64,000 nucleotides of DNA, from positions 38,535 through 102,534 of IMG/VR virus record IMGVR_UViG_3300028563_000012. One strand, written 5' to 3'. Positions within the stretch are counted from its first letter, which is position 1; every line of letters begins with the position of its first letter. A program made the position numbers and the translations under genes. The stretch is from a virus. The notes below the pieces were generated by a model. The model was not told where the DNA came from. It ran no database searches and saw only the letters and a list, made by a program, of their open reading frames with translations. Positions 28,664 through 38,981 of this stretch are shown here, in pieces.

Positions 28664-29185
28664 TTACTGCCAAGCCGCGATCAGGACACCAGCAGGAACG
28701 GCAACACCGCTGCTGGCCTTGGCAATGGAGACGGTCAGGCTGTCGCCTGGTGCCAACTCCAACACGGTCGGATCTGTGTTCAACGTGCCCGCAACGGGCA
28801 CAAAAGCGGTCCAATCACCGGAACCGCCACCGGCCGCCGTTTTGGTGGCGATGGTCCCAACAACACCGCCATCAGCGCCCGCGGCCGTGCGTTTCTTCAC
28901 GGTCAACGTGGCATAGGAGGTGTCGTTGGATGTTAGGGATGCCCCTGGCGTGTACGATACGCCCACAACATCCTGGGTGTGAGACCCAGAGTTGGTGTGG
29001 AATATCGTTTCAGCCGTGGTGTCGGTCGCGCCGCCATCGACCGCCGACTTGGTGTGCTTTGCCGACCTGTCAGCCAGATCTGCAATATAGTGGGGCAAGT
29101 CGTCACTTGTCCCCTCTTGGCTGTTGAGATTGGAGCCGCCAGCAAACAAAGTTGCGAGGCGGCTGACCACTGTGCGAAGGCTCAT
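28664..29185 (-). CDS. Probable capsid decoration protein
   Basis: Directly after the major capsid gene with strong RBS; T/A/G-rich. Confidence 0.55.
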   Translation of the reverse strand: MSLRTVVSRLATLFAGGSNLNSQEGTSDDLPHYIADLADRSAKHTKSAVDGGATDTTAETIFHTNSGSHTQDVVGVSYTPGASLTSNDTSYATLTVKKRTAAGADGGVVGTIATKTAAGGGSGDWTAFVPVAGTLNTDPTVLELAPGDSLTVSIAKASSGVAVPAGVLIAAWQ

Positions 29186-29239
29186 TCATTCCTCCTGGTG
29201 AAGATTCTCGATTTGGTGTCTGCCCCTCGACATGCCGAC

Positions 29240-30451
29240 TTAGACGCCGGTGCCGAGATTGACGACCTTCACCAACGCGTCCGTCTCTTCCACGTTCATG
29301 GTCACCTTGGCCGTGATCACGTACTGGTTGACGCGCTTGAAGATGTCACGGTCACGCTCGATGCGAACGTCACGACCGATACCGACGATGAGGTTGCTGT
29401 AGTGGGTGAGCAACAGCGTTGGGTTGGCATCGTAGGTGACCTTCACGGTTGCACCGCTGTTGATGGCGCTGGCCGACGTGCGAGCGATCGATCCAGTGCT
29501 GGTGATCGTGTAGTCGTTGTTGGTGCCGTTGGTGGACGGCAGATAGGCAGCGGTCGCAGTGGACGCCAGGGTGCTTGGGAGCACCACAACGTTGGCGACA
29601 GCACTACGGCGCAGCTGGACTGCCGTGGTACTGGTGAGGATGATGTGCTCAACCTCGCGATACTTGAACGGATACAGGTTGAACGGCACGAGCTGGATGC
29701 CGAAGGGCGTCAGGTTCTGCGTGCTGGATAGGGCGTTGTCACCCTGCTGCGTGGCACGCGTCGACACGCGCTCACGATAGTTCTGCTCCAGGTTGACGCT
29801 GGTCATGTAGCGCAGCTCTTGGCGGTTGCGCTTGAACTTGGGCGGCATCGCATTCAGCGCCTGGCTGAACACGTTGGAACCGATGTTCTGACCCTGAGCA
29901 TCGTACACGTGGGCGCCGTCGGCGGCCCGCAACCAACCGTTGCCCATCCCAAGGTAGGCATCCTGGACGTATTGCGTGGTGCTGCCACCGTCCAGGATGT
30001 CGCCCTCAATGGCCGCACGGCCAAGGGCATCGCCCTCGATGTAGAGCTGTTCCATGTCGTTCGCGAGCTGGGCCGCCATCATGCGGATGATGCGATCCTC
30101 GACAGCTTCGCCTTCCAGGTTGATCTCCCGGAAGGTGTCGCTGATCTCGAACGGCACGATGATCTCCAGCGGCTGGAGGGTGATGCGGCTGGTGCTGACA
30201 CCGCGTCGGTTGGTCGGCGCCGTGGCTTCCGCGGCCGGCTGAGCAAGACGTTTGCCCACACCGATCTTGTCGATGTAGAGCTGTTCGTTGCGGAACCGGA
30301 TGGTGCGTGCGTTGTTCTTCAGGCCCGACAGGTCAAAGACGTAGTCGATGAACTTGTCAGATTGGGCTGGGTTGAGCTTGCCTTGGCTGGCAAGCGCGTC
30401 GGTTGCAATGACTGCCTTCTCCACCAGCTGCTTGTTGTCGACTTCGGCCAT
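29240..30451 (-). CDS. Major capsid protein
   Basis: GKLNPAQSDKFID, NLEGE, GNGWL, IGRDVRIERDRDI; strong codon bias. Confidence 0.92.
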   Translation of the reverse strand: MAEVDNKQLVEKAVIATDALASQGKLNPAQSDKFIDYVFDLSGLKNNARTIRFRNEQLYIDKIGVGKRLAQPAAEATAPTNRRGVSTSRITLQPLEIIVPFEISDTFREINLEGEAVEDRIIRMMAAQLANDMEQLYIEGDALGRAAIEGDILDGGSTTQYVQDAYLGMGNGWLRAADGAHVYDAQGQNIGSNVFSQALNAMPPKFKRNRQELRYMTSVNLEQNYRERVSTRATQQGDNALSSTQNLTPFGIQLVPFNLYPFKYREVEHIILTSTTAVQLRRSAVANVVVLPSTLASTATAAYLPSTNGTNNDYTITSTGSIARTSASAINSGATVKVTYDANPTLLLTHYSNLIVGIGRDVRIERDRDIFKRVNQYVITAKVTMNVEETDALVKVVNLGTGV

Positions 30452-30499
30452 TTTACTTGCTCCTTGTTGGATGTTTCTTGCGTGGGTGAAGGGCAGCCG

Positions 30500-31345
30500 T
30501 TACAGCACGCCCGACCAGAAAGACTTGGTTGTGGTTTGGGTGGCGGTGCTGTTGTCAGCATCCGTCTTGGTGGTGCCGCCATCAACGGCTTCCAGTTTCT
30601 TGGCCATCGAGGCCACGGTGTCGTTGAGAGATTTGATGGTCGCAGTGACTTCTTCCAGAGATTTCTTGGTTTCCGGAGTGGGCACGGTGTGAGGGATCAA
30701 CGGCTTGACGCCGTCGGTGCCTTCGCCTGAGTCGATCGACGTGAGAGACTTGTATGCCTCCTCATCCACGCTCTTCACCAGGCCCATCAGGTCTTTGAGC
30801 GCCTTGGTGAAGGCCTCCATGCGTTCCTTGCTGAACTGCTTGCCGCCAGCCTTGGAGACGTTGCCTGAACCCTGCTCACCGTCATCGGCCTCTTCCTTCT
30901 TGGCCTTGGCGGTCTTGCCCTTGCCCTTGTCGCCATCGTCGGTGTTGTTGCCAACATCGCTTTCGAGGACATCGCCAATCGCCTTGGTGAGGTTGGCAAT
31001 GCTCTTCTTCATCTCCTCGCCATCGGCCTTCAGCTTTCCAGCCGCAATCGCCTTGTTGAGGTTGGAAACCATGCTCTCAAGACTTGGGGCCACATTGGTC
31101 CCGTCATCGTTGAGAGGTGCTTGCATGCCGGGCTTGGTGCCTGGCGTGAACGACGGGGTGGGCGCCTTTGAACCTTCGGGGTTGCCAGGCGACGCGGCTT
31201 TGGCTGCAGTGGTACTCATAGATCCCTCCATGGATTTGACCGCCAAGAAGTCGACCAGGTTTGCAGGCTCATCGACAAGGTCGACATTGCCCACTTGCAG
31301 GTCTAAAAAGCGCTGCTTGGCTTGTTGGTCAGATGTGCTCGACAT
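30500..31345 (-). CDS. Scaffold protein with N-terminal protease-like segment
   Basis: VDLVDEPAN..FLAVKS, then charged coiled coil ending KSFWSGVL; internal RBS before MSTTAAK. Confidence 0.7.
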   Translation of the reverse strand: MSSTSDQQAKQRFLDLQVGNVDLVDEPANLVDFLAVKSMEGSMSTTAAKAASPGNPEGSKAPTPSFTPGTKPGMQAPLNDDGTNVAPSLESMVSNLNKAIAAGKLKADGEEMKKSIANLTKAIGDVLESDVGNNTDDGDKGKGKTAKAKKEEADDGEQGSGNVSKAGGKQFSKERMEAFTKALKDLMGLVKSVDEEAYKSLTSIDSGEGTDGVKPLIPHTVPTPETKKSLEEVTATIKSLNDTVASMAKKLEAVDGGTTKTDADNSTATQTTTKSFWSGVL

Positions 31346-31382
31346 GTGCCTTGATTCTCGAATGGATCAAGACAGTCGGCAA
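31346..31382 (-). promoter_or_regulatory. Putative sigma70-like leaderless promoter for scaffold/capsid
   Basis: TTGCCG-17nt-GAGAAT, ATG 8 nt downstream; CTTGAT/ATCAAG inverted repeat brackets the -10. Confidence 0.45.
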
Positions 31383-31398
31383 GAGATGGAGGATCGGA

Positions 31399-33819
31399 CT
31401 ATGGTGTTTGAATCTGCTTCACTTTTGCAATTCCAGCGATGGAATAGCCACGTATCTTGGAGTCTTTCACCTTGGTCCAGATGTCATCATTTTCAATATG
31501 AGTAACCATCATCCAAGTGCCTTTCTTGATTGATTTGGTTCCCATCTTGAAGTTGACCGGAGCACACCATGATTCCACAAGGTCAAGACCTGCAGGGAAG
31601 CTGTTGTGCTGCACCCCGATCTGTGTTGACCTGTTGTAATTTGCCAAGAAGTCATGGGCGGCCTTTTCGATGACATCAGCGCTGTAGATGTCGCCTTGGC
31701 CATCAACAACTTCAGGCTCCAGCACAATGCCCCAAATCAGCCGTTTCTCATCATCAGCCTTCACAACTGGGCACCACAGTGACTTCCTCACCTGGATGGC
31801 GCCGCTATCCAACATGGCAATTAGGACTTCAGATTTGGGCGTCTGTGACCAAGCACGTTCCCACACCCAAACGCGGGTTTCATCTTCCCAATCAACACTG
31901 TAGTCGAACACTGCCAGCCGAACGTTGCGGAGCAGCCACAAGCCAGACAACACGCCAGCTTCCAGCCAAAACTCCTTTTCAGTGTCGCTTTGCTTGCCAG
32001 CAGTCCATTTGAACTGACTCCTGATGGCATAGCGGCTCCAACCGTCATCGCCCGAGCCGACGGCACCGGGCGGGAACGCGGTTGCATTGTCCAAGCCAAC
32101 ACCCATCCACCCCAAATCGCCCTTGCGCGCTGCACCGGCCGGGAATTCGACCTTGACGCGATCATCGCTTGATGGGTACTTGTACTTGCTGGTGTCGGAC
32201 GGGACGCTCAAGTCAATGGCTTGGTATGCGCCCGCGGCTTCCTTCAACTCGTTGTCACCGAATTGGTTGCCTGGAAACAGCATCTCACCACCCTCCCAGA
32301 ACTTGTCGCCCTTGCGCACCAGGCGGATGTCGGTGTGGATGTGAACGGGACGCAATACCATCAGCAGTCTGCGGTCAGGCTCGGGCATCGCATCGAAAGC
32401 AGCACCGGCCTCACCCTTGGATGCTCCGATCTTGTCGTCGATGAGCTTGAGCAGCTCATCGTTGTAGCCGCCCATGGCTTTGGCCAATGGGATCGCGGAA
32501 TCATCGCCGAGCAACTGGCGCATGCGCTGGATCTGCAAATCATCGGGCTCAAAACCCTCCCATCCCATGGCGTCGGTCATCTCAACTTGCTGTCGGAGCA
32601 GCCCCATCTCATGGGTTTGCAGAATGCCGGTGCCACCCTCGCCCTCGACAATGTCCAACGGCTGCGGAATGTCCAGCTTTTTCGCCTTGGATACACGGCT
32701 GCCATCTTCCTTTTCCAGCATGGCTTGCGCCTCTTTCGTCGCCTTGGCCTTCACATCCGGCGGCAAATTCGATTGCGGGATCCGGGATAGCGCGTTGCGA
32801 AGGTGCGGCAGATCAACCTTGCCGTCGGCATCCTTCACAGGGAAATGGCGCAACGAGCGCGGGGTTGTTTTGCCATCCTCGTCTTTCTCGCCACCGCCCT
32901 CGATGTGCAGGAATGCGCTGTCGGGCAACTCGTTGATGTACTTGCCGCTCCAAAGTGCCTTGGACATCTTGAATGACTGATGGTCGCCGCCAACGGACAT
33001 GACGATGTCATCAAACGACAAGGGCTGCTCAGGCAACTCATCCGTGGGAGCAGCTTCGCCCTTTTCCAGATACTTCAAGGTGACGTGCGGGGTGAATCCG
33101 TGGCTTTTCACGACCTTCACCCCGGTCGACTCGATGGCCTTGCAGACGCCTTGTCTGAAGTCGTGCATGTCGGGTGAATCGACCAACGCACAATGCACAC
33201 GGCGGCCTTCTGAGGTTTCAGAAGGGGCAAACATGCCATGGCCAGCAATTTTGCCGGTGTAGGCTTCCGATTGGGCGGCATGACGTTTCATGGCTTGCCG
33301 CACAGCCTCGACTTGCCCGCTGGACAAGTCCTTGCCGAGGTAGGCGAGCGTGACGTGCATTTTGTCATGAGGTTCACCGCCGGGAACCGCTAGCGATTTG
33401 GCCACATTGGGGTCGATGCTGTGGCTGATCATCACACCCGTGTGCCCCTTGACAGCTGGGATCTTCTTACGGTCGCCAGGGAAATGCGCTGGGTTGAGCT
33501 TGCCACCCGTCTCCAACGTTCCCGAGCTGATCGCGCCATTGGCAGGCGCACCGCCATCGGCCTTGCTGCTGCTCGCAATGGCTGCGCCGCACGCATGGCA
33601 AACGCCGTTGTTGATGTCCGACTGCTTCAAGACGGCGCTGCATTCGGGGCAGCGCTGGAACTTCTTGGTGTCGACATCGCCAACCGTCGGATCTCCATCT
33701 TCAGACGCCTTGGACTTCGTTTCAGCCACCGAGTTGGCGTCAGACGGATCAACTTCAGCCTTTGCGGCCTTGCTAACGGATTGCCATTGGTCAGATGTGA
33801 GAGCGCGTCGTTTGAGCAT
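31399..33819 (-). CDS. Multidomain prohead protease: Zn ribbon, 2H phosphoesterase, small helical domain, LigD-PE-like region, XkdF-like protease
   Basis: CPEC/CHAC; HVTL at aa155 and aa245; YINELPDSAF...RHFP...HLRNALSR; LQTH...HTDIRL; DEKRLIWGIVLEPEVVDGQGD...GYSIAG. Confidence 0.8.
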   Translation of the reverse strand: MLKRRALTSDQWQSVSKAAKAEVDPSDANSVAETKSKASEDGDPTVGDVDTKKFQRCPECSAVLKQSDINNGVCHACGAAIASSSKADGGAPANGAISSGTLETGGKLNPAHFPGDRKKIPAVKGHTGVMISHSIDPNVAKSLAVPGGEPHDKMHVTLAYLGKDLSSGQVEAVRQAMKRHAAQSEAYTGKIAGHGMFAPSETSEGRRVHCALVDSPDMHDFRQGVCKAIESTGVKVVKSHGFTPHVTLKYLEKGEAAPTDELPEQPLSFDDIVMSVGGDHQSFKMSKALWSGKYINELPDSAFLHIEGGGEKDEDGKTTPRSLRHFPVKDADGKVDLPHLRNALSRIPQSNLPPDVKAKATKEAQAMLEKEDGSRVSKAKKLDIPQPLDIVEGEGGTGILQTHEMGLLRQQVEMTDAMGWEGFEPDDLQIQRMRQLLGDDSAIPLAKAMGGYNDELLKLIDDKIGASKGEAGAAFDAMPEPDRRLLMVLRPVHIHTDIRLVRKGDKFWEGGEMLFPGNQFGDNELKEAAGAYQAIDLSVPSDTSKYKYPSSDDRVKVEFPAGAARKGDLGWMGVGLDNATAFPPGAVGSGDDGWSRYAIRSQFKWTAGKQSDTEKEFWLEAGVLSGLWLLRNVRLAVFDYSVDWEDETRVWVWERAWSQTPKSEVLIAMLDSGAIQVRKSLWCPVVKADDEKRLIWGIVLEPEVVDGQGDIYSADVIEKAAHDFLANYNRSTQIGVQHNSFPAGLDLVESWCAPVNFKMGTKSIKKGTWMMVTHIENDDIWTKVKDSKIRGYSIAGIAKVKQIQTP

Positions 33820-33846
33820 GCCTAAGAGTTTAGCCGCAGTCGCGGC
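33820..33846 (-). promoter_or_regulatory. Putative leaderless promoter
   Basis: TAAACT 7 nt before ATG, no SD; GCCGC/GCGGC hairpin just upstream; no clear -35. Confidence 0.35.
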
Positions 33847-33918
33847 CAGCGATTCTCACAACGCGCTCGCATTGCAACCAATTGATGCCAATCTGATTGC
33901 GCTAAGCACCAACAGCAA

Positions 33919-34062
33919 CTACGGCTTTTTGGTGGTGTCTTTCGGCTTCGCCGGGACCTTGGCTTGCTCGATTTCGTGCTGTTTGGCTTGCTTTCGACCT
34001 GGTTTGATGACCACGAAGTCACCAGGTTGTGCAATGAATCGATTGGTATTTTTGTCTGGCAT
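33919..34062 (-). CDS. 47-aa basic ORF coupled to MuF-ART
   Basis: TAATG overlap; MPDKNTNRFIAQPGDFVVIKPG...; below the ORF-track cutoff. Confidence 0.45.
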   Translation of the reverse strand: MPDKNTNRFIAQPGDFVVIKPGRKQAKQHEIEQAKVPAKPKDTTKKP

Positions 34063-35732
34063 TACGGCACCTCAGCGATGACTCGGATGACGGTTCGCAC
34101 CTCTCCTGCAATCTCTTTGTCTTCGATGCCAACCACCTTGAACCTTGTGCCTTTTTGCAACAACAGCTCAAGCTCGCCATTGGGGTATTCACGCGTTGCG
34201 TCCAAGTACGCAGCATGGGAACCTTTCGGGACAAGGATTTCCATGACAATGTCGTCTTTCTTTTCAGCGAAATTCAACACAACGGATGGCCTCAAGGCAG
34301 TGGAAGTGAATGCCGGATCTTCAATGACGGCCCCTGGTGTGAAAACGGCTCCGGCCGATGCTGGCAGCCCGCGATACGTGATGGTGTCAGATGGGAGCTT
34401 TGCCGTGTCCAGAGCAGCAGACAGCTTGTCGATCCTCTTCAACGCCAACGACCGTTCATCAGCCAATAGCGGACGACTCTCAACCTTGTCCAGGTTGTCA
34501 CGCAGGATGCCGTTCATGGTCCTGTGGGCATTGTTTTGGTACCTCCTGATCACCAATTCCTGGTCATCGGTCAACTTCGACGCCCAATGTTCAAATTCAG
34601 CCATGCCCCACACCTCGGCTTCCTTGTCCGACTTGTCCGCATAGGACGTCGCCCCGTCCCAATCAGCCTCCGGCATGTCGGTGGGCTCCGGGGCCAGAGC
34701 GTCAGGCGCTAGCTCAGGCATCGACTCCTCGTTGATGTCGACGCCGCAGCGGCACACGCCATGGTATGGCGGATAGCCGAATCCAGCCAACATCAGGTTG
34801 GCGGCACCCTTGATATCCGCAACGCTGTTGGCCCAAGGGTGGATCTCGCGCACGCGCTCGGGATCCGCTGCATTGGTTTCCTTGTCGAGGCGGTTCTGCG
34901 CTTCCTCAACCTTGAAGGTCTTGCCATTCAGGTCGTGGCAAATCGGACATGTCTTCTCATCATCCGGGTTGACCACCACGTACTCAGTGATGCCCAAGCC
35001 ATGCATCTCACGGACCATGCCTTGGGTACGGGCATTGGTGACCGTGTTGGCCGACAACATGCGGAAGTAATCAGGGGTGGTGCCTTTCCACCCGCTCGGC
35101 AGTTCCAAGCCAGGGCCGCGGTCCAAGGGCCCGGATTTCAGCCCAAACTCACGTGCTAACTCATCTTTGAGGTGGCCTCCGGCTTCGCTCCTGCCAAGGC
35201 CGCGGCGTAGCATGTACTCATCTGTCAGGCCGGAGATCTGCTTGGATAGGGTGTCGTCGTATTGCTTCCCAATCCAAAACACCTGATGCCTGGACAGGGC
35301 GTCGATGGCCTTCTCATCCTCGGTCGAAAAAGCTGCTCGCAACTCGGGCCCGTCACCTGCTGCTTTGCGTACGTGACCGCGCTTGCGATACAACGCATGG
35401 GCCCGTTCACGCATGGCTTGTTTGGCTGTGCGATAGGCATCGTCAACGATGGTGTTGACGATGGCCGTGGTGTTCTTGCGCCACGGTTTGAAGTGCCCGT
35501 GGATGCGCTTGGCTAGGGCTTCAGCCTCACCGGCCGTCAGCGGGGTGTCGCCCTCGATGCCCTCCAACTCCTGCAGAGCAGCAGCGGCCATTGGCAAGAA
35601 GACGGTGTTGAGCGATTTCCCCATGCGTCGCTCGATGATGCGGAATAGCTGATCGTTGGATGCGCTAACAGCCTTGGCAAGGATGACGTCCAGCGTCAGC
35701 AAGCGCTTGACTATCTGCGCTGTTTCACACAT
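34062..35732 (-). CDS. MuF (gp7-like) head protein fused to ADP-ribosyltransferase
   Basis: MuF: TCPICHDLNG, PPYHGVCRC; ART: TYRG, FTSTAL, ELELLL (R-S-E triad, ExE). Confidence 0.88.
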   Translation of the reverse strand: MCETAQIVKRLLTLDVILAKAVSASNDQLFRIIERRMGKSLNTVFLPMAAAALQELEGIEGDTPLTAGEAEALAKRIHGHFKPWRKNTTAIVNTIVDDAYRTAKQAMRERAHALYRKRGHVRKAAGDGPELRAAFSTEDEKAIDALSRHQVFWIGKQYDDTLSKQISGLTDEYMLRRGLGRSEAGGHLKDELAREFGLKSGPLDRGPGLELPSGWKGTTPDYFRMLSANTVTNARTQGMVREMHGLGITEYVVVNPDDEKTCPICHDLNGKTFKVEEAQNRLDKETNAADPERVREIHPWANSVADIKGAANLMLAGFGYPPYHGVCRCGVDINEESMPELAPDALAPEPTDMPEADWDGATSYADKSDKEAEVWGMAEFEHWASKLTDDQELVIRRYQNNAHRTMNGILRDNLDKVESRPLLADERSLALKRIDKLSAALDTAKLPSDTITYRGLPASAGAVFTPGAVIEDPAFTSTALRPSVVLNFAEKKDDIVMEILVPKGSHAAYLDATREYPNGELELLLQKGTRFKVVGIEDKEIAGEVRTVIRVIAEVP

Positions 35733-37483
35733 TAGCTGGCTTGCTTTGCGAGACTCAGCTGGGCTTTCAGCAGCTCGACTTCCAGGTCAGAACGTGCCCC
35801 AAGCAAATCTGAGAGCAGCATGCTCTTGATCACGGCTTGGCCTTCAGTGAGAATGCCCTTCACGGCAGGTTGCGCCTCGATGGGAGCAGTGTTTTTCACT
35901 GCCTCTGCCAACTGCAAGCTGAACGGGATGTCCGGGTTTATGGATTTGTCCAAAGCAGGCAGACGCTCGATGCCGAGGATGTCGCTGATTACCATGCGAG
36001 CGATGCGCGGTGTCATGCCGCCCGTCCGTTCCGCTGTTGCCAATACCTGAATCAGGTCTTGGTCATCAGTCAGCGGCGGATTGTTGGACTTGAAGCTGTG
36101 ATACAACACGCCAAGGTCTGGAAGGATCCAGTGATTCATGAAGTAGTCAAACTCATCCCGCAGCGGCCGGAAAATCTGCTCATCCGCCAACTTGCGCGAG
36201 GCATCTGCTGTTGCGCGTGTGTAGTCTGTGCTCCGACCGGTCAGGATGGGCGGCATGCGCCAAACTTCACGCACACGATCACCATTCGTCTTGCCATACT
36301 CGCTGAAAAGCTGATCGCGAGCTTGCTGGTTGGTCATTGGCTGGATGTTGATTTTGGCCGCACCTCTGCCCTCTTCACCTGCGTCTGTGGTGTTCGTGTC
36401 GGCTTCCAAGAGCAAGAAGCGGCTGTAGTTGGAGCTGCCTTGGATTTGCTTCTCCACAAACTCTTGTATGCGGGTGATCGTTCCCTCGGTCAACGATCCG
36501 TTGGACACGGAGATGATCATTGACGGGATGTTGTTGTTTTTCAGCGTGACGTAGTTGATTTCATCAGCAGCCCGGTCACCGTAGATGGACACGAGATTGC
36601 CAATGTAGCGCGGCATGCCATACGGCGTGCGCGGGCTGTACAGGCGCCAGTGGATGACCTCATTGGCGTAACGTTCCTTGGGAATTTCACTTTCCTTGCC
36701 TGCCTCAAGGATCTTGCCAGTCGTGCAGTCCATGGTCCGCGGATCGCCGTACTCCTTGAACCAGCGCACCCCTGGCGCGCCGCTGACGGTCAAGGCACGC
36801 ATGACACCGAACAAGCGCCGCTGAACAAACTTGCGAAAGCGCTTCTTGCGTGTCATGTCGACAAGCTTGACACTTCCGTCAGGTTCCATCTGCGGAACCT
36901 TACGGGTGAATGGGTAGAATTCCTTGGATTGTATCCCCAGCGCCATCTGGTAAGACGGGATGTGATTCAGCTGGACAATTCGCCCATCCACCGGGCTGCG
37001 AATGACTTCCCAAAATGCTTCACCCGTGGTCTCGATGTCTTGGCGGGTGCGCTTGCGCAACTCGGTGAAGCTGTAATCAGTGCAACAAGTGTTGAGGAAG
37101 TTCAGGAGCTTGGCCCGCTCTTTTGCAACTTCAGACTTCACGCCCGGCGGGCAAGATGGATCATCAACATTGACACGAGCATCCAAGCGTTGTCCGAACC
37201 CATCAACATTGACCACCATGGCCTCGATGACAGGCCCGAGTGCGGAGCTGTTTTCAGGCAGCATGGCCAGTGCCATCTTCTCAAATGGCGCTTCAATTGC
37301 CAAGCCATCCGTGACCAGCTGCGCAAAAGGATCGTCTTGTGGCAATTCCTTGGTGTGCGGGATCTCATCATCTTCGTTCCTGTCACCACCAGTGATGCCC
37401 TTCCGTTCCTCTTTGGGCCCAAAGATGATGGCTTTAACTATGGCCTTGGATGAAACGCCTGGTTGCTGTAATGTGGTTGCCAT
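35732..37483 (-). CDS. Portal protein
   Basis: GEAFWEVIR, NEVIHW, YGMPRY, NNNIP, MPPILTG; follows TerL. Confidence 0.9.
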   Translation of the reverse strand: MATTLQQPGVSSKAIVKAIIFGPKEERKGITGGDRNEDDEIPHTKELPQDDPFAQLVTDGLAIEAPFEKMALAMLPENSSALGPVIEAMVVNVDGFGQRLDARVNVDDPSCPPGVKSEVAKERAKLLNFLNTCCTDYSFTELRKRTRQDIETTGEAFWEVIRSPVDGRIVQLNHIPSYQMALGIQSKEFYPFTRKVPQMEPDGSVKLVDMTRKKRFRKFVQRRLFGVMRALTVSGAPGVRWFKEYGDPRTMDCTTGKILEAGKESEIPKERYANEVIHWRLYSPRTPYGMPRYIGNLVSIYGDRAADEINYVTLKNNNIPSMIISVSNGSLTEGTITRIQEFVEKQIQGSSNYSRFLLLEADTNTTDAGEEGRGAAKINIQPMTNQQARDQLFSEYGKTNGDRVREVWRMPPILTGRSTDYTRATADASRKLADEQIFRPLRDEFDYFMNHWILPDLGVLYHSFKSNNPPLTDDQDLIQVLATAERTGGMTPRIARMVISDILGIERLPALDKSINPDIPFSLQLAEAVKNTAPIEAQPAVKGILTEGQAVIKSMLLSDLLGARSDLEVELLKAQLSLAKQAS

Positions 37484-37505: not shown

Positions 37506-38981
37506 TCACATCAGACCAGGCTCTGATCGCCGCTTTTTCTTGGCACGGCGCTTTGACGTCTTGATGGCCAAATTCAAAGCGTCAAACAAGTCATCATAGC
37601 GGTGGTGCGGGAATAGCACAAGGTGTTCGATGAGATGTGACATGTTGCGCCTGAAAAACACCTTCTGATTCTCAAACAATGGTGACAAGTTCTTGGCTTC
37701 CGTCACCTTGTCCTTCAGGGTGATGATGGCGACGGCGTTGATGTGCGGGAAGTCCTTTTTGACGTTGTAGAATTGCGCTTTTTGGTAGGCGTTGGACTCG
37801 ATTCCAACTCTGATGCACTCGTTGTCATCGTAGAAATCTGCCACTGCTGCTGTCTGTTTCGGGTATGACAGCTGCTTCTCATAATACGCCAAGACGTAGA
37901 TGTTGCCGAGCTTGTCGATCCCGACGGCCACCATGGCAAACATGTCGGCCTCATCCTCTTCAGAAATCATCAAGTCAACCCCGGCATAATGCGCGATGCT
38001 GCCCCACGGGATGTCCTTGTCATCGATGACTTGGCAGTCGTCAATGCTGAAGATGCTGCCCTTCATGACATCCGTATTCAGCATGTACTGAGAGTTGAAG
38101 CGGATGATGCCGCCGCGGCGGAGGGTTGCGACCTTGTCCTGTGTGAATCCCAAGCTATTCGGACGCACTTCACCATTGGGAAGAAGGATCGGGATGATCA
38201 GCGTCTGTGGGCCCTCAAGCTCACCGCCGGTGTCGTCGTCTTGGCGCTTGGAAAGGTGCCCGTGCAAATCCATGTGGTGAAAGCGCGTGCCCTTGATGTT
38301 CAGCGAGCCGATGAACGGATCCGATGGGATGGGTTGCTTCAACGTCGGAAGCAACATCTTGTAGAACCAGTTCAGCATTTTCTCACGCTGGTAAAGCGTG
38401 CGGCTGTTTTCCTCGTCCACCAAGTCGTCAGCATCGATGATGTCATAGTGCTTCGACGCAACTGCGCCTTCGATGCCGATGGTGTTGATTGACGGTTCTT
38501 TCGATGGCTGGGTGCGGCCGGCAACCTCAATTTCGGTATCAGACCACAACGACTTCCCAACGTAGTTGCCAAACAACCGGTGCAACATCTCGTTGGTCTC
38601 GAATTGCTGCTTGATTTCCTTCAACATGTCAGCAGCGTTGTTGCCTGTCTTTGATGCGATCAGGATCGACCGATTTGGGTTCAACAGCAGCTGAAAGATG
38701 TCCCACGACACTGTGGCTATTGTGGTTTTTCCAGACCCGCGCCAAACCAACGTCTGGCACCAGTTGCCTCGCCAACGATACTGGTGGTTCAGCATCTCCA
38801 AGTGGTGCGGATCAACCCGATACCCCAACACCACTTCGGCAAGAATGTCCACCCTGTGGCCGATCAAGATCAGCCGGCGGATCCACTCATGGTACAAGCT
38901 TTTGTGCTTGTCATACAACTCCAGCAACTCGCGTCGGTCCAAGCTCTGGAGTTGCTTGACGCTAATTCGTTCGTGGGACAT
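37506..38981 (-). CDS. terL: Terminase large subunit
   Basis: RGSGKTT Walker A, IIDADDL Walker B, GTRFH, GVDL, DDLFDA nuclease motif. Confidence 0.92.
   Translation of the reverse strand: MSHERISVKQLQSLDRRELLELYDKHKSLYHEWIRRLILIGHRVDILAEVVLGYRVDPHHLEMLNHQYRWRGNWCQTLVWRGSGKTTIATVSWDIFQLLLNPNRSILIASKTGNNAADMLKEIKQQFETNEMLHRLFGNYVGKSLWSDTEIEVAGRTQPSKEPSINTIGIEGAVASKHYDIIDADDLVDEENSRTLYQREKMLNWFYKMLLPTLKQPIPSDPFIGSLNIKGTRFHHMDLHGHLSKRQDDDTGGELEGPQTLIIPILLPNGEVRPNSLGFTQDKVATLRRGGIIRFNSQYMLNTDVMKGSIFSIDDCQVIDDKDIPWGSIAHYAGVDLMISEEDEADMFAMVAVGIDKLGNIYVLAYYEKQLSYPKQTAAVADFYDDNECIRVGIESNAYQKAQFYNVKKDFPHINAVAIITLKDKVTEAKNLSPLFENQKVFFRRNMSHLIEHLVLFPHHRYDDLFDALNLAIKTSKRRAKKKRRSEPGLM

Follow-up and report, generated by a model that had tools for sequence, protein, structure and literature searches.

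A predicted XkdF-type prohead protease joined to 2H and LigD-phosphoesterase-like domains in a phage head module

Alt and the internal proteins of T4, which bear cleaved capsid-targeting sequences, and DarB of P1 enter the procapsid, where the prohead protease trims them, and leave the head together with the DNA so as to act before phage genes are expressed (see also PMC5512222). The polyvalent proteins described by Iyer, Burroughs, Anand, de Souza and Aravind in 2017 (PMC5512222) combine several effector domains, and possibly a peptidase that releases them, in one polypeptide whose gene has a virion-module setting. The LigD 3'-phosphoesterase (PE; 3n9b, 3n9d and 2lj6, with the archaeal structures 3p4h and 3p43; PF13298), the RNA phosphodiesterases of the ThpR/LigT group (4qak and 5ldm from E. 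coli, 5h7f from D. radiodurans, 1vgj from P. horikoshii) and the phage enzyme Acb1 (T4 gp57B; 7t26 and 7t27 from phage FBB1; PF23474) are the enzymes with which the chain considered here can be compared domain by domain. This chain of 806 amino acids (aa; P0001) is the product of an open reading frame (ORF) located at 31399..33819 on the minus strand of a 64,000-nucleotide (nt) stretch, hereafter the window, which is the right-hand 64 kb of the 102,534-bp IMG/VR virus record IMGVR_UViG_3300028563_000012, rated complete by CheckV.

The ORF is uninterrupted and encodes a C-terminal prohead protease domain preceded by a divergent domain of the LigD 3'-phosphoesterase fold, a conserved module without a family model, and a 2H phosphoesterase. 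On the combined weight of sequence comparison and predicted structures, we incline to the view that this ORF is the only capsid-maturation protease gene of the phage, enlarged into a cargo polyprotein.

Domain composition of the chain

The domain at the C-terminus (aa 680-806, 31402..31782; all parts of the chain are on the minus strand) is a predicted prohead serine protease of the XkdF type (Peptidase_S78_2), and its gene lies where head modules canonically have their protease. The Pfam profile Peptidase_S78_2 (XkdF, PF14550) matches aa 685-800 with an E-value of 1.1e-33 (116.4 bits against a cut-off of 24, profile positions 5-124 of 126), and phrog_3017, head maturation protease, matches the same domain with E 1.3e-37. 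Thus, a first-pass annotation of this DNA, made from the sequence alone, was correct in confining the XkdF-like protease to the last ~120 aa of the ORF. In an alignment of 8 homologues, the D/Q-G-D, S, H, S, K and S positions of this domain are invariant.

Upstream of the protease, the region with the QTH and HTDIR motifs (aa 395-679, 31783..32637) is a divergent domain of the LigD 3'-phosphoesterase fold (hereafter PE-like), as a predicted model and fold searches confirm at the fold level. No Pfam or PHROG model recognises it; the LigD_N profile (PF13298) gives no match on aa 386-685 even at E <= 10, and none on the members of the family alignment at E <= 0.001. The single PE-like sequence finds no match in viral contigs, where the alignment used as query did find relatives. 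An exhaustive HMMER search of 1.84 billion proteins identifies 69 representatives of the family, almost all within long multidomain proteins. The alignment contains 57 members, the sequence from the window and 56 relatives, with an identity of only ~25-40%, and the model of aa 386-685 built with it reaches a predicted local distance difference test score (pLDDT) of 86.4 and a predicted template modelling score (pTM) of 0.84. The top six matches of this model in the PDB, as identified by Foldseek, are all LigD PE domains, with E-values from 2e-3. A separate structural search detects the archaeal PE 3p4h (Z-score (Z) 10.3, root-mean-square deviation 2.2 A, 117 of 118 residues) and the P. aeruginosa LigD PE 3n9b (Z 8.6), all other matches being at Z 3.0 or below. 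The family profile, when compared with PDB sequences, also ranks LigD PE chains first (E 0.04-0.4), and the HMMER alignment places the HTDxRL of the PE-like domain on the HYDFRL of LigD PE and includes the C-terminal strands. The likeness to the LigD 3'-phosphoesterase that the first-pass annotation had read from an LQTH...HTDIRL pattern is therefore borne out by the model.

Of the 57 aligned members, 51-54 retain the residues Q401, H403, H495, D497 and R499, a degree of conservation that speaks for an active enzyme, and ~15 further positions are retained in at least 90% of the members. In P. aeruginosa LigD PE, we take Gln40, His42, His48, Asp50 and Arg52 to be the metal-site and phosphate-binding residues, following the work of the Shuman laboratory; the Q-x-H motif aligns with Gln40/His42 and the H-x-D-x-R motif with His48/Asp50/Arg52. 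In the PE-like domain, the strand with Q401-x-H403 is parted from the strand with H495-x-D497-x-R499 by a helical insert of ~85 aa, and the domain also holds a disordered loop of ~30 aa. A literature search on the LigD phosphoesterase in connection with prophages and capsids found nothing.

The segment of aa 125-286 (32962..33447) is a 2H phosphoesterase of the LigT/ThpR type; the range nt 32965-33447 given for it in the first-pass annotation corresponds to aa 125-285. The two HVTL motifs, at aa 155 and 245, supply H155/T157 and H245/T247, and both HxT motifs are near-invariant in a 13-sequence alignment. Pfam profiles for 2_5_RNA_ligase2 (PF13563; E 9.9e-9, 35.9 bits against a cut-off of 27) and LigT_PEase (PF02834; E 8e-6, 26.4 bits, also exceeding its cut-off) cover approximately aa 150-260, so that the complete 2H domain noticed earlier downstream of a CxxC/CxxC ribbon is substantiated, the ribbon motifs having been located as well. 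The best match in NCBIfam is TIGR02258, RNA 2',3'-cyclic phosphodiesterase (ThpR/LigT), with E 1.7e-10, the score of 41.1 bits not reaching the equivalog cut-off of 65.7. An AlphaFold model of aa 120-386 has a mean pLDDT of 86.6. Its best structural matches are the cyclic phosphodiesterase (CPDase) of D. radiodurans (Z 18.9), the "2'-5' RNA ligase" of P. horikoshii (Z 17.3) and E. coli LigT (Z 16.5), followed by a second tier with Usb1, AKAP18 and viral 2'-5' phosphodiesterases (Z 12.7-15.6). Among the 20 PDB chains with the 2H fold that match at Z of at least 10, Acb1 (7t27) ranks 18th with Z 10.7, and the poxvirus phosphodiesterase of cyclic GMP-AMP (cGAMP) has Z 10.4. Foldseek returns these relatives in an order that agrees with the Z-scores, LigT and CPDase ahead of Acb1, which is at rank 21 with E 7e-6.

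In BFVD, the nearest predicted viral structures (E 1e-12 to 3e-14) come from phages of Gordonia, Microbacterium and Rhodococcus, in which the 2H domain is set in a large protein annotated for head morphogenesis, as "RNA ligase" or as structural; actinophage proteins of this kind are also the tblastn matches. The BFVD entry for Acb1 matches with E 7e-6. The Pfam Acb1 profile (PF23474) scores 14.2 bits on this domain against a cut-off of 27 (E 0.037), which is below the family threshold. The term "Acb1-like" used in the first-pass annotation thus holds at the level of the superfamily and is not supported for the Acb1 family itself, to which the domain does not belong by its sub-threshold profile score and by a structural similarity that ranks behind enzymes of the LigT/CPDase type. 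Similarly, the comparison by AlphaFold and Foldseek that had been proposed for each domain supports the assignments to LigD PE and LigT but not Acb1 as the closest relative. From its sequence and model, the domain is a true 2H enzyme of a clade found in phage head proteins, and it is apparently active. Paired HxT motifs beside a prohead protease do not by themselves make a domain an Acb1, and this appealing over-reading is corrected here. A literature search on the BCSR5 phosphodiesterase found nothing.

The segment with the motifs LPDSAF and HLRNALSR (aa 287-378, 32686..32961; hereafter the LPDSAF module) separates the two phosphoesterase-fold domains. It had been picked out previously as a helical domain, and a segment at aa 285-385 is indeed a conserved module of more than 100 XkdF fusions. 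No other part of the chain is as well conserved: identity is 50-78% in these proteins whatever their cargo, and some of them have the module in duplicate; it is also found in stand-alone viral proteins of ~100 aa. Structure matches in the Atlas show the module in the company of XkdF, HK97-type and Mu-type proteases and of MuF. Searched alone, it yields no usable Pfam or PHROG family, and in the PDB, where it was searched within the model of aa 120-386 only, the best match has Z 5.5, on short helical pieces, with no clear fold match. The Atlas offers leads only: some clusters carry DUF6582 on 11-15% of their members, and one HhH_3 cluster matches with TM 0.63. These observations are best compatible with a conserved hub domain of phage proteins predicted to be internal to the head, and its conservation across unrelated capsids suggests that it might bind a universal ligand such as DNA.

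The remainder of the chain consists of short N-terminal segments. An unstructured-looking peptide (aa 1-52, 33664..33819) is followed by a zinc-ribbon-like segment of the CxxC...CxxC type (aa 53-83, 33571..33663; C57 and C74), with weak matches to Pfam ribbons (E 0.14-0.35), and by a linker rich in Gly, Ser and Ala (aa 84-124, 33448..33570), which holds the sequence GKLNPA and ends in AVK↓G, the arrow here and below marking a candidate cut. Among PDB sequences, a search started with a single sequence yields only a weak match, to PH0099 (E 0.33).

Head module and relatives

Nearly all long ORFs of the window are on the minus strand. In the direction of transcription, the head module comprises the large terminase (TerL, 37506-38981), the portal (35732-37483), a MuF-like head protein fused to an ADP-ribosyltransferase (ART) domain of the exotoxin type (34062-35732, minus strand; PF03496, E 3e-24), the 806-aa ORF, a scaffold-like coiled-coil protein of 281 aa in which the motif x-K-[ASGT] abounds (30500-31345, minus strand) and a major capsid-like protein (29240-30451, minus strand; phrog_1623, E 9e-71). 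This order upholds the protease position that had been assigned to the ORF. No match to an S78 (HK97-type) or ClpP-type protease is detected elsewhere in the 102.5-kb record, and the 806-aa chain therefore carries the only recognisable head protease of the phage. Searches of the phage for an Rnl2-type RNA ligase, RtcB and an ATP-dependent DNA ligase found none, and a search for Rnl1, in which no control was matched, carries no information; no tRNA genes are present within the 64-kb window. The MuF-ART gene, which a short ORF separates from the 806-aa ORF, encodes a second candidate for a head-packaged, injected effector.

Viral contigs with capsid proteins 49-58% identical to that of the window keep the order TerL, portal, MuF, protease-slot chain, scaffold, capsid. 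Their protease-slot chains range from 529 to 1539 aa and always end with the PE-like and XkdF domains, preceded by an ATP-dependent ligase in 7 of 8 cases, by methylases that are S-adenosylmethionine (SAM)-dependent or of the Dam type, and in one case by a metallo-beta-lactamase-fold domain. Four sister loci (L002:4788-9185, L004:4512-9131, L005:5625-9194 and L009:1310-4933) encode a SAM methylase, an ATP-dependent ligase, the PE-like domain and XkdF in one chain; a more distant relative (L052:5721-9023) combines a metallo-beta-lactamase-fold domain with ligase, PE-like domain and XkdF. The combination of methylase, healing and sealing domains in the sister phages recalls what we take to be the arrangement of the bacterial Pnkp-Hen1 RNA repair system.

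Among the 57 aligned PE-like sequences, XkdF is present in 39, a ligase in 15, a SAM methylase in 13 and a 2H domain in 3. The 2H domain joins PE-like domains in P0003, P0004 and P0005. Among 120 listed homologues, the commonest cargo on the XkdF protease is the Dam methylase (75 proteins), with 2H a minority cargo (~9). The predominance of Dam methylase argues for a general logic of loading enzymes into the head, and such a cargo makes sense for enzymes that are needed early at the DNA. The association of 2H, PE-like and ligase domains favours, for the 2H/PE pair, healing of nucleic acid ends over degradation of signals. Enzyme cargo on the XkdF protease recurs in syntenic relatives and in hundreds of metagenomic proteins, and this part of the cargo idea put forward in the first-pass annotation stands; it accords with the prediction by Iyer et al. 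that polyvalent proteins packaged in heads bring their 2H domains into the host (PMC5512222). Packaging and delivery of the cargo we infer.

Candidate processing sites and terminal peptides

Counts of the x-K-[ASGT] motif were made for the head proteins within 28664-37483 of the window. The form [VILMFA]-x-K-[ASGT] occurs 17 times in the 806-aa chain compared with 6.7 +/- 2.4 in shuffled sequences, and 9 times in the scaffold-like protein compared with 3.9 +/- 1.9. The sites at K124, K287, K378 and K679 coincide with low-pLDDT joints of the two models. A lysine followed by A, S or T (K↓A/S/T) is kept ahead of the protease domain in 7 of 8 homologues, and K-A-x-W ahead of the LPDSAF module in 6 of 7. 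In the capsid protein the motif occurs once, as LVEK↓A at K12 near the N-terminus, and relatives keep this site. These patterns of conservation and of predicted flexibility suggest that [VILMFA]-x-K-[ASGT] may be a candidate specificity of the XkdF protease, with self-cleavage after lysine at the domain joints.

The first 17 aa of the chain (33769-33819, minus strand), with RRALTSDQWQSVSK↓A, resemble the N-termini of P0007, P0017, P0019, P0138 and P0005, which are proteins with different cargo; the motif is found in 9 of 184 proteins compared with 2 in a control window. This N-terminal peptide may be a cleaved capsid-targeting leader. In the scaffold-like protein, aa 7-37 (LDLQVGNVDLVDEPANLVDFLAVK↓S) are conserved in the scaffold of L002 (48% over 31 aa). 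The same segment resembles the first strand of XkdF (GIVLEPEVVD) and terminates in a candidate cleavage site at K37.

The linker of the polyprotein (33488-33504) and the capsid gene (30366-30382) share 17 identical nt, for which the chance expectation is ~2e-4 matches; in both places the encoded sequence is GKLNPA (aa 24-29 of the capsid protein). This sequence is kept in the capsid N-termini of relatives but is missing from their polyproteins; GKLNPA is therefore rejected as a general signal for cleavage or docking that the two proteins would have in common. The homologue P0003 has AGKLNP near its N-terminus.

Proposed role and comparison with known systems

The explanation that we favour, with a confidence only somewhat better than even, is that the chain is a cargo polyprotein that passes through loading, cleavage at its joints, delivery and 3'-end healing. 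The protease end, perhaps aided by the LPDSAF module or by the peptide at the N-terminus, would bring the chain into the procapsid along with the scaffold. There, the protease would cut the flexible joints at hydrophobic-x-K↓(A/S/G/T), as it would cut the scaffold and, at K12, the N-terminal end of the capsid protein. The released enzymes would remain in the head and exit with the DNA at the next infection beside the MuF-ART. The opening of 2',3'-cyclic phosphates would then fall to the 2H domain and the removal of 3'-phosphates or 3'-ribonucleotides to the PE-like domain, this end healing either countering the damage done by host defence nucleases or readying ends for a host ligase. The joining of both phosphoesterases to the protease probably serves loading into the head. 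Judging from the motifs, the models and the company that these domains keep, 3'-end healing of nucleic acids is most likely the chemistry of the 2H and PE-like domains, a weaker possibility being that 2H breaks down immune signals made of cyclic or 2'-5' oligonucleotides.

Several considerations weigh against this explanation. Prohead proteases usually digest themselves and exit the head. In the chain itself, 11 of the 17 motif sites fall inside folded domains, and K-A/S/G dipeptides are common. An alignment of the motif R-G-P-L-x-W-M with D-H-P-L-D-Y-A of LigD, made without residue-level superposition, puts Gly567 and Trp571 at the positions of His84 and Tyr88; with this seeming loss, the chemistry of the PE-like domain may therefore differ from that of LigD, E512, Q519 and N523 being candidates for residues that stand in for the two. 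The similarity of the 2H and PE-like models to known enzymes is one of fold and does not give the substrate, no RNA or DNA ligase was detected in the phage, so that it does not itself encode a full pathway of repair, and loading, cleavage, delivery and substrates are all steps that we infer. On the first of these points, an XkdF-type protease was seen by mass spectrometry, with 2 peptides, in virions of Stenotrophomonas phage DLP3 (PMC7326821), which by analogy lends weak support to the possibility that proteases of this type can stay in the head.

The alternative that fares best is counter-signalling of the Acb1 type. The 2H domain would cleave the cyclic oligonucleotides of the cyclic oligonucleotide-based antiphage signalling system (CBASS), or other cyclic or 2'-5' oligonucleotide signals, and the fusion would place the antidote at the protease that triggers a nucleotidyltransferase of the cGAS/DncV-like type (CD-NTase) late in infection. 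The background on which the first-pass annotation drew is sound: activation of CBASS cyclases through cleavage by prohead proteases has been published (PMC12991175; Hobbs and Kranzusch 2026; 10.1101/2023.05.21.541620). The published triggers are not known to include the XkdF family. Both Acb1 and the poxvirus cGAMP phosphodiesterase are 2H enzymes that match the model, in the structural searches and in Foldseek and BFVD alike, but LigT/CPDase enzymes fit far better, the Acb1 profile stays under its cut-off, and the top curated family is that of RNA 2',3'-cyclic phosphodiesterases. Iyer et al. predicted delivery for 2H domains fused to MuF or portal, as RNases or degraders of nucleotide signals, and proposed signal degradation for the 2H of ligase-less polyvalent proteins (PMC5512222); no ligase is detected in this genome either. 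In the relatives P0003, P0004 and P0005, however, 2H keeps company with PE-like and ligase domains, and with ~9 2H proteins against 75 with Dam methylase among the 120 listed homologues, the logic of the fusion is not specific to CBASS. The earlier suggestion of an immune trigger fused to its antidote accordingly finds no comparative support, and we regard Acb1-type counter-signalling as unlikely.

Slightly less probable still is action in the producing cell, the enzymes trimming, healing or marking the phage's own DNA ends and nicks inside the procapsid during packaging, with no delivery to the next host. The DNA methylase and DNA ligase domains that share the chain in relatives could act on DNA that is being packaged, the tether to the protease would put the enzymes inside the shell, and LigD PE is a DNA-end repair enzyme. 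Against this, SAM, ATP and Mn2+ would need to enter the shell, packaged double-stranded DNA offers no obvious substrate to a 2H cyclic phosphodiesterase, and the neighbouring MuF-ART is of a type usually interpreted as an effector for injection. That the extra domains are non-enzymatic, whether they act as structural filler, tune procapsid assembly by scaffold-like mass or persist as decaying fusion relics, is very improbable even with the seeming replacement of the LigD His84/Tyr88 equivalents, the lack of Pfam or PHROG models for the PE-like and LPDSAF parts and the strongly varying cargo of relatives, because both HxT motifs of 2H are intact and near-invariant in homologues, Q-x-H, H-x-D-x-R and ~15 other PE-like positions are kept in at least 90% of the 57 members despite their low identity, and both domains are modelled at high confidence.

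A bolder reading is put forward only tentatively. The virion would deliver a 3'-end-healing kit that repairs RNA or DNA cut by defence systems within seconds of DNA entry, or 2H would destroy the CBASS alarm set off by the phage's own protease. As part of the same tentative proposal, the kit would comprise 2H and a LigD-type phosphoesterase in re-engineered form, to which sister phages add a ligase and a Hen1-like SAM methylase. If the cargo explanation is true, the protease that matures the capsid also serves as the hook by which enzymes are loaded and carried into the next host, which would be a route of counter-defence independent of gene expression; if the kit is real, it represents a class of counter-defence so far undemonstrated. 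The pairing of 2H and PE suggests that repair of nuclease-damaged ends may be an under-appreciated phage strategy, and the PE-like domain and the LPDSAF module, both without a family model, are concrete, assayable unknowns.

Among known systems, ThpR/LigT shares with the 2H domain the two HxT motifs and the size of ~160 aa and provides the best family and structure matches, but 2H here forms one part of a head polyprotein instead of a protein of its own and scores below the TIGR02258 equivalog cut-off. The likeness to Acb1, in the 2H fold, the paired HxT motifs and the encoding by a phage, is at the superfamily level only; Acb1 is a small free-standing early protein, whereas 2H here is part of a head protein. 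Embedded 2H domains are found in actinophage head proteins annotated as capsid maturation, MuF or "RNA ligase" (Gordonia phages Lilbeanie, Tiamoceli, GTE6, GMA2 and Tardus; Microbacterium phage OneinaGillian), one such protein being annotated as structural; these share ~30% identity in the 2H part only, have other protease or MuF partners, and had no PE-like domain detected in these searches. With LigD PE, the PE-like domain has in common the beta-barrel fold and the Q-x-H and H-x-D-x-R motifs, and the pairing of an ATP-dependent ligase with the PE-like domain in relatives mirrors bacterial LigD; it differs by the ~85-aa helical insert, which splits the first hairpin, by the disordered loop and by its setting in a phage head protein beside a protease. 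In T4 Alt and P1 DarB the cargo is separate from the protease, whereas here it is covalently joined to it.

The closest general parallel is with the polyvalent proteins. The defining feature of that group, at least two effector-type domains beside virion genes, is found here as 2H, PE-like, LPDSAF, Zn ribbon and protease in one chain. The presumed anchoring and processing peptidase is the phage's own XkdF prohead protease, compared with a zincin-like MPTase in the polyvalent proteins, and in the text of PMC5512222 the terms XkdF, LigD, "DNA ligase" and "serine peptidase" are absent and neither a LigD-PE-like domain nor the LPDSAF module is described. Thus, the 806-aa chain is a well-preserved member of a barely described class, a variant of the theme of polyvalent head-packaged effectors, and what is particular to it and new is a prohead protease in the place of the anchor, the divergent domain of the LigD PE fold and the LPDSAF hub.

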